Below, in pieces: positions 2,861 to 28,044 of a stretch of 64,000 nt of DNA. The first letter of the stretch is position 1, and every line of letters starts with the position of its first letter. A program made the translations under genes and the position numbers. Origin of the DNA: Escherichia coli (GTDB taxonomy: Bacteria > Pseudomonadota > Gammaproteobacteria > Enterobacterales > Enterobacteriaceae); the NCBI RefSeq assembly GCF_003018115.1, contig NZ_CP027457.1. One strand, written 5' to 3'. The notes under the pieces are model-generated. The model was not told the origin of the DNA. It searched no databases and worked only from the letters and a program-made list of their open reading frames with translations.

Positions 2861-3460
2861 TCAGAACTTATAACCGACACCCACGATGAAACCGTCAGTG
2901 CGCCAGTCGCCACTGCCGGAGCCTTCATAAGCAATATCAATGGCCACGGATTCGGTCGGGTTAAACTGCACGCCAGCTCCCCACGCCAGAGACGTGTTGC
3001 TGTGGCGACCGTCATCACTTCCGGTCAGCACGTCGTGCGTTTTCCCCTTGTTGTCAGTTACGCGGAGATAATCCCCGGAGAAAGTCGACACACGGCTGTA
3101 AGCCATACCCGCCATCGCATACGCGCTGAACCATTCATTCACGCGCACAGACGGCCCCACCATCACGCTGAACCAGCGGTTACGCACGGAATCTTCATGC
3201 CAGCGGGTATCGCTGTAACGGGTAAGCTGGCGATTCTTGTCTCCTGCATAGCTGAATGACGTCACCAGCCCCAGTGTGTCCGTAAACTCATAACGGTATT
3301 TCACGTTAATCCCGTTAAGATCATCGCTGCCGGGAACGTTCGTCGAGGCATGAAGATACCCCGCGCTCAGCGTGGACTGATGTTCAGATGCCCATGCAGG
3401 CGCACCGGATACGGCCAGACAAATGGCTGCGGACAAAATGGCGGCATAAAGTTTACGCAT
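2861..3460 (-). CDS. lom: Outer membrane protein Lom (Ail/Lom family)
   Basis: 199 aa, signal peptide, beta-barrel-like sequence recognised as lambda Lom; position after J. Confidence 0.9.
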
Positions 3461-23584: not shown

Positions 23585-23761
23585 TCAGATTAAATTAATC
23601 TTGACATCATAGCTTTCAAGACCCGTCATTTTTTCCCGTGCGGTAAACTGAATACTGGTAACTTCTTTCCCGGTCTTTTTCTTAAGTTCAATAATTTTTT
23701 TTGTTATATATTCAGAAATATCTGCTTCTGCTTTTGTTTTTAAGTTTTCAATATTCATCAT
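23585..23761 (-). CDS. gnsB: GnsB (GnsA/GnsB family)
   Basis: Hand-translated 58 aa MMNIENLKTKAEADISEYITKKIIELKKKTGKEVTSIQFTAREKMTGLESYDVKINLI; below ORF-track length cutoff. Confidence 0.7.
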   Translation of the reverse strand: MMNIENLKTKAEADISEYITKKIIELKKKTGKEVTSIQFTAREKMTGLESYDVKINLI

Positions 23762-23929
23762 TTCCTCTTTTAGTCTGTTATGACTTTCCAGTTACACAGT
23801 AAGTCGATTATATGGTGCAAACGTGTAAAAGATAAGATGAAACATCGCAATAATCAACATACGATAGTCTAAATTTTACACAAACAGACAAAGAGAATTT
23901 TCCTGAATTATCAATGCAATAGCATCAAA

Positions 23930-24202
23930 TCAACTCAAGAGCCTTATTGCTGCTTCCAGAATTTCTTCTGAAGTAACATGTCGATCCGCGGCTACATAAA
24001 TGACTTTATGATCTCCGGTCAGAGATGGAAACCCTGCGGCCATTACAGTAAGGTGTGTTTTTTCGCCATTTGGATATTCACGCATGATGGTGTTAACTCC
24101 AGTCATCGCTGGCACTACCACTGCTGGTTCAGAGTTAAAAAAAACTATGATTTTTTTCATGATGTTACCGTAGTATGTGAGTATCCATCGAATAGACACC
24201 AA
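23930..24202 (-). CDS. Hypothetical small protein at the ynfN position
   Basis: 90 aa ORF between gnsB and cspI; true start may be internal. Confidence 0.4.
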   Translation of the reverse strand: MVSIRWILTYYGNIMKKIIVFFNSEPAVVVPAMTGVNTIMREYPNGEKTHLTVMAAGFPSLTGDHKVIYVAADRHVTSEEILEAAIRLLS

Positions 24203-24431
24203 GCAAAAAAGCTCCCGAAGGAGCCTTCATTTTCACTTTTTTAAATCCAACGACAGACGGCTGGCATTTAAGTATTGTGAAATATTATCAAATGTAATCA
24301 TCATTGATTTACAAAAGATACATTTTGCCCCGAAAGGATTCATGTCAGAAACATCAAAAGATGATGTTCTATACTGGGAACCATGACAACACGGGCATCT
24401 AAAGTGAATATGGTTTGTAATATTGTCTACC

Positions 24432-24644
24432 TCAAAGCGCCACTACATGAACAGCGGCAGGACCTTTAGGTCCGTTCTCAATACCAAATTCAACTTCCTG
24501 ATTCTCAGTTAATGTTTTGAAATCGTTGCTCTGAATTGCTGAGAAATGGACAAACACATCTTTGCTGCCATCTTTCGGCGTGATGAAACCAAAACCTTTT
24601 TCAGGGTTAAACCATTTCACTAAACCAGTCATTTTGTTAGACAT
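24432..24644 (-). CDS. cspI: Cold shock protein CspI
   Basis: 70 aa CspA-family sequence [23 protein letters not shown]. Confidence 0.9.
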
Positions 24645-25006
24645 AATTATTACCTTTTGAAGAAATTAGCCCTTGGGCAGAATGGTCCGAAAAAAAATAT
24701 CAGAGAGAAAAACCAACAAGGAAATCTCAAGAGGTACAAATAATAAAATTATAACAATGACTGCTTCAGATAAATTTGTAACAAACCAGAACACCATTAA
24801 CGCATGATTAACCACCCATAGCAAGGATTACTTTTGTAAAGAAAAACACAGCAATGAAAGAATAGCTTTATTTATTAATAAAACGTGTCATTCTGATTAA
24901 GACCTTTTATCTTACCCTTAAGATTTCAGGAATTTTGGCTCATGGAAGAGTCCTTTTTATTTAAATTTTACATTCCGCGATGTAAATGTTCCGATTTAAT
25001 ATTACC

Positions 25007-26030
<1,024 letters not shown>

Positions 26031-26034
<4 letters not shown>

Positions 26035-26342
26035 AGATATTTATGATGAGGACGCTCGTGCTTATTGGCAGGATTTTCAATCTTAAAGGAGTACTGATGC
26101 TGCAGATAAGACTCAACTTTTTCTGACAATTTTTCTGCTACTTCCAGGAAGACTTGCCGGACGCTCCTTCTGGCTGCTGCCTCATAAAACTCCAGCGCAG
26201 CTCCTTCAACACGGTCCATGGCGACATCCAGGTCAAAAATTTCACCGTCAAAGCGTTCTTTGTCCTGTAAGGCTACAGTTACCGTAACTTTATTCTCAAA
26301 ATTACGGACTCCTTTCACAACCAGTTCATAGTCTTGAGTCAT
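26031..26342 (-). CDS. ydfR: YdfR-like protein of unknown function between holin and endolysin
   Basis: 103 aa, no TM segment; 4-nt overlap with endolysin start. Confidence 0.75.
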
Positions 26343-26346
26343 TGGA

Positions 26347-26562
26347 TTACTCTCCTCTCGCAGCCTTACGCCTGTCTTCTTTAATCTTGAAATAAAGATT
26401 TGTCAGATACGTCAGCAGGCCAAAAACCAGGCTACCCAGCACACCGATTGCAGCCCACTGTGACGGAGTTACTTTATCGAGTAACTGCAATGCCCAGAAA
26501 CCAGCATTACCCGCCGATGTGCCATAGGCAACACCTGTTGTTAACTTATCCATTGATTTCAT
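26347..26562 (-). CDS. essQ: Holin (S21-type pinholin family)
   Basis: ORF track 26347-26637; trimmed to [18 protein letters not shown] start with GAGGA Shine-Dalgarno, 71 aa, two TM segments. Confidence 0.85.
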
Positions 26563-26781
26563 ATCCTCACCCCGATGTACACGGATGGTGCAATATGTTT
26601 GAAAAGATCGGAGTCTACGGGGTAGTTTTGACAGCACACGTTGTTCTCAACGGCGCTAAAAAAACATACACATTAAAAATGTGGGTAATTATTTTGAAAG
26701 AAAGTCATATATAAAATAATAATACGAGAAATGTTTTCATATTTAGTGTACTGTATACGGCCATTTATACAGGAAAAGCCT

Positions 26782-26952
26782 ATGTCAGAACGTAAAAACT
26801 CAAAATCACGCCGTAATTATCTCGTTAAATGTTCCTGCCCAAACTGCACCCAAGAGTCAGAACACAGTTTTTCAAGAGTACAAAAAGGTGCCCTTTTGAT
26901 CTGCCCTCATTGCAACAAAGTATTCCAGACAAATCTTAAAGCTGTAGCCTGA
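26782..26952 (+). CDS. Small zinc-ribbon protein (C-x2-C ... C-x2-C)
   Basis: 56 aa from ATG after AGGAAAA; CPNC ... CPHC motifs. Confidence 0.5.
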   Translation: MSERKNSKSRRNYLVKCSCPNCTQESEHSFSRVQKGALLICPHCNKVFQTNLKAVA

Positions 26953-27017
26953 TTGATTTTATTAGTAACAAGTATTTTTTATATTTTAATAATATATTTA
27001 AAGCAGATAATAAAAAA

Positions 27018-27045
27018 CCCGCCTGAGCGGGTTTGAGATTGTGGT
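27018..27045 (-). terminator. Rho-independent terminator downstream of cspB
   Basis: GCGGG-loop-CCCGC stem followed by TTTTTT on minus strand. Confidence 0.5.
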
Positions 27046-27315
27046 GCTTTTTGTGGGAGTCATCCACTTACGCACTTTGTTTTGCCATGCCAGCAGTTAG
27101 CTTCTGCTGTAAAACTATTCATGCAGCAAACCTGCACTTCACCACAATGGTTAGCATACTTTTCCTGATTAAGATTTTGCCAAATATGCTAGCCATTGTT
27201 TCATGTATTGGACCTCCTTACTTTTTATTAAAGAGATCCAATATTCACTACTCTGTCCGTATCTCTACTCAGGCATCAGCCTTCTTCGTTATCGTATACA
27301 GACGAGCGATGAATT

Positions 27316-27531
27316 TTAATCAGTAATGATGACATTTGCTGCTGCAGGACCTTTAGCACCACTCTCTATAGAGAAGGTAACCTTTTGACCTTCAAATAAG
27401 GTTCGATAATTATCATTCTGAATCGCAGAAAAATGCACAAACACATCTTTACTACCATCAACAGGAGAAATAAAGCCGAAACCTTTATCAGCGTTAAACC
27501 ATTTTACTAAACCAGTCATTTTATTTGACAT
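27316..27531 (-). CDS. cspB: Cold shock protein CspB
   Basis: 71 aa CspA-family sequence [23 protein letters not shown]. Confidence 0.9.
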
Positions 27532-27831
27532 TCTACATTCCTTAACTTGAGCCTTTCGGCATAAATGGTTTGCATAACAGAAACGACTTCGTACTTAATT
27601 GGAGAGACTCAAAGAAGGAATAAGTGAATAACACCTGAAATGAGAACTGCTTTAGTAAACTACTTCGTATATCGTCTGTTCTTCAAACCGACGCAATCAT
27701 TAACGCATAGTTGAACATATGAAGCAATGTTTATTTTAGACATCCAGCCATCTTCAACCCCATCAAAAAACTATAGCTTTCTTCAGGAACGTGTGTATAG
27801 TGCGCCAAGTTATCAGTATTAAGGAATTTTT

Positions 27832-28044
27832 TTGTCCCGTAAAATGACAGGAATTGTCAAAACCTTTGACGGCAAAAGCGGCAAGGGTCTTATCACCCCA
27901 TCCGATGGTCGTATCGATGTCCAGCTTCATGTTTCAGCGCTCAATCTCCGCGATGCAGAAGAAATTACCACCGGATTACGCGTGGAATTTTGCCGGATAA
28001 ATGGTCTGCGTGGCCCTTCAGCTGCCAATGTTTACCTTTCATGA
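27832..28044 (+). CDS. cspF: Cold shock-like protein CspF
   Basis: 70 aa, [23 protein letters not shown], CspF/CspH subfamily. Confidence 0.85.

Follow-up and report, generated by a model that had tools for sequence, protein, structure and literature searches.

YnfU of Escherichia coli K-12 was discovered through ribosome profiling of stalled initiation complexes (Ribo-RET; Weaver et al., 2019, bioRxiv 10.1101/511675). In that study, chromosomally SPA-tagged YnfU was detected by immunoblot in LB at 37 °C and was the most abundant among the newly identified small proteins. The authors also pointed out two CPXC zinc knuckles and found by threading a moderate match with the PA0128 zinc domain. 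The gene was independently recovered by PIRT-seq (PMC12350097), and a benchmarking study reported full Ribo-seq coverage of ynfU plus a translation-initiation-site peak. Here, we analyzed an open reading frame (ORF) at positions 26782–26952 of a 64,000-nucleotide stretch of E. coli DNA (contig NZ_CP027457.1; the whole stretch is referred to as the window), for which an initial annotation, made by a model from the sequence alone, had proposed a small zinc-ribbon protein. The ORF proved to be ynfU, and the window to be the Qin prophage of E. coli K-12 MG1655. Across Enterobacterales, ynfU is part of a small-gene "csp island" (ynfN < ymcF/ynfQ < csp < > ynfU < cspB cspF >) that occupies numerous chromosomal sites, most of them outside phages. 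In Qin-type phages, it lies in moron positions flanking the lysis cassette; there, ynfU would run antisense to the late transcripts, and the gene is expressed in the lysogen. Neither the island membership nor the Qin moron placement of ynfU was found stated in the literature, and both are possibly new.

The ynfU gene and its product

A 501-nt query spanning the ORF was 100% identical to E. coli K-12 MG1655 NC_000913.3 1640623–1641123, which lies in "cryptic prophage Qin", and RefSeq labels the ORF as ynfU, b4776, "putative zinc-binding protein YnfU", in its 56-residue form. The reading frame runs on the + strand from the ATG at 26782 to the TGA that ends at 26952. Its product is MSERKNSKSRRNYLVKCSCPNCTQESEHSFSRVQKGALLICPHCNKVFQTNLKAVA (56 residues), and both the sequence and the ORF list bear out the CPNC (residues 19–22) and CPHC (residues 41–44) pairs that the initial annotation had read in it. 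The gene and the features at its 5′ side are as follows.

26782–26952, + strand: ynfU (b4776) coding sequence, 56 residues plus stop; RefSeq equivalent NC_000913.3 1640805–1640975
26771–26774, + strand: Shine-Dalgarno sequence AGGA, 7 nt 5′ of the ATG; spacing kept in nearly all of the 62 species loci
26746–26754, + strand: conserved block GTGTACTGT, with an invariant G-T-A-n-n-G-T (26748–26754) across genera
26694–26723, + strand: alternative sigma-70-like match, TTGAAA, 18-nt spacer, AATAAT; 10 of 12 consensus positions

Full-length matches to two curated hidden Markov models (HMMs) exceeded the gathering or curated cut-offs. The product matched Pfam PF23499 ("YnfU") with 107.3 bits (cut-off, 27; E = 3.5e-31; residues 1–49 of 49) and NCBIfam NF038384 ("YnfU family zinc-binding protein") with 79.4 bits (cut-off, 36; E = 1e-22; positions 1–51 of 52). 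It also carries the family motif, CPxC...CPxC in a protein of ~50–60 residues with an SEHS-x2-R-x2-K loop between the knuckles. The identity, coding status, and family of ynfU are settled. As a discovery, the ORF adds nothing, being already annotated, represented by Pfam and NCBIfam models, and detected as a protein on immunoblots. The remark of the initial annotation that such genes are often missed was correct for the time before 2019, but ynfU/b4776 has been in RefSeq since the study of that year. The first-stage reader was able to spot in raw sequence a real small gene, one that had remained unannotated until then.

A species scan, with one genome per species, yielded 62 ynfU loci, all the named ones from Enterobacteriaceae. 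The ORF, the start codon, and the Shine-Dalgarno sequence were intact in 59 of them, with ATG at the equivalent position (GTG in two) and cAGGAa or cAGGAG 7–9 nt 5′ of the start. The dN/dS values against the window copy were 0.05–0.16 (pairwise Nei–Gojobori), and the median over 558 usable pairs was 0.12, with the synonymous sites saturated between genera. The column variability of the alignment at codon positions 1, 2, and 3 was 0.185, 0.087, and 0.400, respectively. Conservation analysis and ribosome profiling had been named as checks in the initial annotation, and both gave positive results: the ORF is kept under purifying selection (dN/dS ~0.12), and Ribo-RET, Ribo-seq, SPA-tag immunoblotting, and PIRT-seq are all positive in the literature. 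The Shine-Dalgarno sequence that it had called reasonable is the AGGA at 26771–26774.

A 73-residue ORF from the ATG at 26731, used in the annotation of phage HannyBb, was rejected, as the extension is not conserved and the Shine-Dalgarno sequence precedes the ATG at 26782. An in-frame stop occurs within 17 codons 5′ of the conserved ATG in 30 of 61 loci, and 30 loci are without an upstream in-frame ATG. Because the extension is broken or ATG-less in about half of the species, the 56-residue form is the conserved one.

Approximately 75 nt 5′ of the ynfU ATG are alignable across genera. Within the conserved block, TACTGT (26749–26754) is a candidate −10 hexamer, which would give a 5′ untranslated region (UTR) of ~20–30 nt. 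The −35 element of the TTGAAA/AATAAT match is not conserved in the alignment outside Escherichia, and such matches in the region are no commoner than in shuffled sequences. For 25 upstream regions, RNAalifold gave no base pairs, and hence no conserved RNA structure, in the 80 nt 5′ of ynfU; as there was no Rfam match either, an RNA thermosensor in the ynfU leader was rejected.

Residue conservation was derived from an alignment of 44 diverse YnfU members, including those of Yersinia, Hafnia, Erwinia, and Cronobacter. C19, P20, C22, L39, C41, and C44 are invariant, and S26, E27, H28, S29, R32, K35, P42, and F48 are found in at least 90% of the sequences, so that SEHS-x2-R-x2-K forms a near-invariant loop. 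C17, in contrast, is not conserved, and several members have V, I, T, N, or S in its place. Because C17 is variable whereas C19, C22, C41, and C44 are invariant, the predicted metal site is C19/C22/C41/C44. The protein is basic, with 10 Lys and Arg residues versus 3 Asp and Glu residues, a pI of 9.6 (equal to the family median), and a net charge of about +6.6.

In the AlphaFold2 model, calculated with the 44-sequence alignment, the mean pLDDT was 74.8, with 81–86 over residues 11–50 and low confidence at both termini. Strands 14–18, 25–29, 38–40, and 47–49 flank both knuckles, and a short helix spans residues 30–35. The CPxC knuckles are thus located at β-hairpin turns, as in the zinc-ribbon fold (Krishna, Majumdar, and Grishin, 2003, cited by Weaver et al.). 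The model is that of a classic zinc ribbon, with an N-terminal tail that is basic and probably disordered. The small zinc-ribbon protein of the initial annotation therefore stands, with matches to the curated zinc-binding families, four Cys residues invariant in 44 homologues, and modelled hairpins at the knuckles. Overall, ynfU is a real, translated, and very likely independently expressed gene, the 56-residue basic product of which has a single four-Cys zinc ribbon as its core and, in front of it, a probably disordered tail rich in Arg and Lys.

When 1.84 billion representative proteins were searched exhaustively with an HMM, only 42 matches were obtained, the remoter of which came from Mangrovibacter, Cronobacter, Jejubacter, Citrobacter/Salmonella, Erwinia, Hafnia, and the Yersinia pseudotuberculosis complex. 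Among the named short single-domain matches examined, no relative beyond Enterobacterales was found, indicating that the family is confined to Enterobacterales. A PDB sequence profile search gave marginal matches only, to the DNL finger of Tim15 (E = 0.012), archaeal L44e (E = 0.028), and PA0128 (E = 0.59). In a Foldseek search of the first model against the PDB, the best match was no better than E = 0.4, and the top matches were small zinc-finger proteins bound to archaeal ribosomes, and HVO_2753. The PADLOC defence models gave no match for YnfU, and only weak matches to PHROGs, none with a known function, were obtained; a role in a defence system was rejected on these grounds. The fold and sequence searches indicate a generic zinc ribbon and nothing more specific.

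The csp island and its split form in Qin

A csp gene lies within 1.2 kb of ynfU in 45 of the 62 species loci. In a tally of the locus layouts, ~71 csp genes were present in 145 kb of near flank, whereas the 439 kb farther out contained only 1. The commonest layout, seen in 17 of the 62 loci, has the Qin order, ynfU> <cspB-like cspF-like>. When the loci were grouped by shared large flanking genes, 24 distinct contexts were obtained, and csp-linked ynfU copies occurred in 19 of them. In contrast, only 3–5 of the 62 loci have homologues of Q or of the Qin lysis genes flanking ynfU, and EssQ homologues adjoin it in only three (our loci L005, L021, and L060). Among representatives of the 19 contexts without lysis-gene homologues, the neighbours belong to the SDR, MFS, response regulator, ABC, PTS, and LysR families, and the 25 most frequent flanking families in these contexts include no phage family. 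In Klebsiella and Raoultella, ynfU is flanked by the bud operon.

In addition to the csp genes, two families of tiny proteins accompany ynfU. A 75-residue YnfN-like protein is encoded divergently upstream of ynfU in 21 loci, and a YmcF/YnfQ-like four-Cys protein (PF23641) divergently and directly upstream in 10 loci. Contiguous islands are exemplified by Citrobacter amalonaticus (L059) and Mangrovibacter (L069), and the distant Mangrovibacter member, in a non-phage context, has the arrangement YmcF < CSD < > YnfU. The proposed content of the island is Csp paralogues and three tiny-protein families, YnfU, YmcF/YnfQ, and YnfN. In the window, the neighbouring features are as follows.

26347–26562, − strand: essQ, PF04971 "Bacteriophage P21 holin S" (E = 4e-34); divergent from ynfU; not a conserved neighbour
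27316–27531, − strand: cspB, PF00313 CSD; convergent with ynfU; the most frequent ynfU neighbour across species
27300–27692, − strand: cspA-type thermoregulator 5′ UTR of cspB, Rfam RF01766 (158.8 bits)
27832–28044, + strand: cspF, third member of the recurrent ynfU> <cspB cspF> arrangement
24500–24790, − strand: cspA-type thermoregulator leader of cspI, Rfam RF01766 (91 bits)
24233–24421, − strand: ynfQ, YmcF/YnfQ family PF23641
27015–27034, no strand assigned: G+C-rich hairpin AAACCCGC-CTGA-GCGGGTTT, 62 nt 3′ of the ynfU stop, from a terminator scan and the fold of the downstream 110 nt

As the initial annotation had stated, ynfU lies between the genes for a pinholin and CspB, with essQ on one side and cspB on the other. 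The S protein of phage 21 is the prototype pinholin. The further statement that the ORF lies opposite the late genes is true in Qin but describes a peculiarity of Qin and Escherichia, as most other genera have a chromosomal copy whose constant neighbours are csp genes and not lysis genes. In Qin, ynfU lies opposite the late operon, in the interval between quuQ and essQ, and the gene orientation suggests that late Q-dependent transcription, proceeding from past quuQ towards essQ, would cross ynfU antisense. The gene has the marks of a prophage moron: it is located between modules and opposite the late operon, YnfU is made in the uninduced K-12 lysogen, and the same module is present in isolated temperate phages.

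The Qin lysis cassette, essQ-ydfR-rrrQ-rzpQ (25007–26562), is located between the two csp-island halves, 23586–24644 (− strand) and 26782–28044. Since cspI-ynfQ-ynfR-ynfN lie beyond the cassette as seen from ynfU, the cassette splits two halves of an island that is contiguous elsewhere. The two forms may be related by phage capture of a chromosomal island or, in the other direction, by decay of prophages into islands.

The convergent ynfU and cspB stops are 363 nt apart (26953–27315), and the spacer ranges from ~270 to 580 nt between species. It contains two terminator-like hairpins on the minus strand, at 27121–27137 and 27015–27034, suggesting either that the 3′ UTR of cspB is long or that the transcript has two alternative ends. 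The hairpin at 27015–27034 has a good T-run only on the minus strand, where it is a strong predicted intrinsic terminator, probably that of cspB. On the + strand it is followed only by TTTGAGATT, and would therefore be a weak or uncertain terminator for ynfU. A 97-residue ORF with a TTG start at 27033–27326 and the matching coding sequence in phage HannyBb look spurious. cspF is without an RF01766 leader, unlike the prophage genes cspI and cspB.

The starts of two island genes in the window deserve comment. ynfN is annotated with 51 residues (23931–24086, − strand), and its frame continues upstream without a stop as far as an ATG at 24160, which would give 76 residues (MKKIIVFFNSEPAVVV...). 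YnfN homologues in 21 other species start at an equivalent MKK(V/I)I(V)FFN, tblastn gave 59% identity over all 75 residues, and PHROG phrog_3425 matches residues 1–75 of 76 of the long form (E = 2e-53). As judged from these alignments, the K-12 ynfN start is probably annotated 25 codons too far downstream. For ynfQ, the product of which has four Cys residues, the annotated start is an ATT at 24419–24421 (− strand), 10 nt past the cspI stop and just after GAGG, whereas the homologues in other species start with ATG. A rare AUU start, as in infC, could make ynfQ translation sensitive to the levels of initiation factor IF3.

Within E. coli, ynfU is an accessory gene: the 501-nt stretch was found in 1652 of 5426 complete genomes, nearly always as a single, chromosomal copy. 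In strain EH01-18-04-A (NZ_CP063515.1 419724–420935), an IS200C is inserted inside this stretch, and the match falls into two pieces. The Yersinia pseudotuberculosis complex (L075–L077, gene at 3001–3162 of these loci) has a divergent member, 32% identical to the K-12 protein, that is encoded by a core chromosomal gene directly 3′ of fadR-nhaB-dsbB on >750 contigs. Several Y. pestis ynfU entries are annotated as partial, and the gene may be decaying in this lineage.

Possible functions of YnfU

Our literature search found no paper giving YnfU a function, and no expression data for ynfU at low temperature. In a possible mechanism, Zn(II) held by the two CPxC knuckles would stabilise a small platform, which, together with the basic N-terminal tail, would bind RNA, the ribosome, or another nucleic-acid-handling partner. 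YnfU would then act in the stress physiology of the adjacent Csp RNA chaperones, in the cold or in long-term stationary phase, and not in phage lysis. This reading is supported by the csp linkage, the basic nature of the protein, the morons of phage Tritos, and the joint up-regulation of its neighbours in stationary phase. CspB, CspI, and YnfN are among the listed morons of prophage Tritos of E. coli LF82 (PMC9928086), and Tritos carries a 98% identical ynfU. In long-term stationary phase, cspB, cspF, cspI, and ynfN are up-regulated together, and cspB and cspI mutants are outcompeted under this condition (PMC7406224). We propose only tentatively that a zinc-stabilised, basic YnfU binds such a partner in the physiology of its Csp neighbours. 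More speculative is the wider proposal that YnfU is a dedicated partner in an unrecognised mobile csp island of Enterobacterales, a zinc-ribbon RNA or ribosome factor that would work with CspB, CspF, and CspI under cold or long-term stationary stress, and that Qin and Tritos carry the split island as fitness cargo for the lysogen.

Several observations weigh against the binding of RNA or the ribosome in Csp physiology. Seventeen of the 62 species loci are without a csp gene within 1.2 kb; the Yersinia (fadR-nhaB-dsbB-ynfU) and Erwinia members have none within 3 kb, and in Cronobacter and Hafnia the csp gene is ~0.8–1.9 kb off, with other genes between. Moreover, since many loci are orthologous, the 45 of 62 overstates the number of independent observations. 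ynfU does not itself resemble a cspA-type cold-shock gene: RF01766 at E ≤ 1 did not match 5′ of ynfU, only the leaders of cspB and cspI, and the upstream conservation extends over only ~75 nt, without conserved RNA structure. YnfU is abundant at 37 °C in LB and is therefore not cold-specific. Finally, the structural matches of YnfU are non-specific.

An alternative is a pure protein-binding role. YnfU would then be a small zinc ribbon that regulates or escorts a larger partner, comparable to Tim15/Zim17 with Hsp70 or to the many small proteins of E. coli that regulate the proteins they bind, and the csp linkage would be a by-product of shared mobility. The best PDB sequence match is the Tim15 DNL zinc finger (E = 0.012), which aligns over CxxC-x-S-x-H-...-KG-x-L-x-CPHC, and the near-invariant, solvent-exposed SEHSFSRVQKG loop could be a recognition surface. 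In addition, binding to larger proteins is the mode of action that Weaver et al. anticipate for most of the new small proteins (bioRxiv 10.1101/511675). We regard this role as rather unlikely.

Were YnfU a phage-serving moron, a Qin-type phage or lysogen would gain from it directly, for instance by superinfection exclusion, anti-defence, or control over the timing of lysis, and the position between Q/pR′ and the holin gene would be the relevant context. The location of E. coli ynfU between quuQ and essQ, opposite the late operon, is consistent with such a role, as is its accessory distribution in E. coli. In Stx phages, stx holds the same position. ynfU is carried by the temperate phages HannyBb, Tritos, 2H10, and PhiR42_1, and a Klebsiella phage has it in the same holin-adjacent position. 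However, the lysis-gene homologues flank only the 3–5 loci mentioned above, representatives of the 19 other contexts have ordinary chromosomal neighbours, and the Yersinia pseudotuberculosis complex has the gene in its chromosomal core, beside fadR-nhaB-dsbB. Together with the lack of a PADLOC match and the weak PHROGs of unknown function, these results make a phage-serving role improbable.

A small DNA-binding transcriptional regulator of the adjacent csp or small-protein genes is just as improbable. No specific similarity to DNA-binding families was found, no repeated operator-like motif was seen upstream of ynfU, the only region inspected for one, and family members without a neighbouring csp gene exist. 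A single zinc ribbon of 35 residues that lacks a recognition helix would also be unusual as a stand-alone, sequence-specific DNA binder. Last, a chance non-coding ORF, for which the small size and promoter-like matches no commoner than in shuffled sequence might speak, is excluded by the purifying selection, the third-position variability, the conserved start and Shine-Dalgarno sequence, the curated HMMs, and the direct detection of the protein.

The association with the csp island offers a small, testable lead, as the conserved company of ynfU is csp genes and two tiny-protein families, and not the lysis genes that it abuts in K-12. This company steers work on YnfU towards cold, stationary-phase, RNA, or ribosome phenotypes and away from phage biology.

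Comparison with known zinc ribbons and csp-linked proteins

The N-terminal zinc ribbon of PhnA/YjdM (PF08274; PDB 2akl, P. aeruginosa PA0128) is, like YnfU, a short Cys4 zinc ribbon. However, YnfU scored 22.4 bits against the PF08274 gathering cut-off of 30.8 (E = 1.3e-4), the 2akl profile gave E = 0.59, and YnfU is without the C-terminal domain of PhnA. The resemblance is therefore in fold only. For the DNL zinc finger (PF05180; Tim15/Zim17/Hep1), YnfU did not show the combination of an HMM match above the gathering score and a conserved D-N-L motif after the second CxxC.

The archaeal ribosome-bound zinc-finger proteins (HVO_2753/DUF1610, PDB 6ydh; 9fhl_C, 9o17_AZ) share with YnfU a length of 50–60 residues, a basic character, and a single or double CPxC ribbon. 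The ribosomal zinc-ribbon proteins eL42/L44e and L37Ae likewise resemble YnfU in size, basicity, and CPxC ribbon, and eL42 aligns with it over CPxC-x3-EHS.

The YmcF/YnfQ family (PF23641) is similar to YnfU in having ~60 residues and two Cys pairs and in being encoded beside csp genes, and a published gene table marks ynfQ as cold-shock induced. The motifs differ, CPCCHGSQYRTS...CIFCK in YmcF/YnfQ versus CPNC...SEHS...CPHC in YnfU, and homology between the two was rejected, as hhalign gave a probability of 1.9% over 7 columns and YnfU has no PF23641 match. Furthermore, the YmcF/YnfQ genes are co-directional with, and immediately 3′ of, a csp gene, whereas ynfU is on the strand opposite to the nearest csp gene in the commonest layouts. 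With this orientation and a conserved upstream block of its own, ynfU appears to be separately transcribed, unlike YmcF/YnfQ.

In comparison with the YnfU family itself (PF23499/NF038384; type member E. coli K-12 YnfU/b4776), the product of the window ORF is the same protein, encoded by 100% identical DNA and with the same two CPxC knuckles, and no difference was seen. What is added here to the description of the family is its range across Enterobacterales, C19/C22/C41/C44 and not C17 as the predicted Zn ligands, and its linkage to csp genes.
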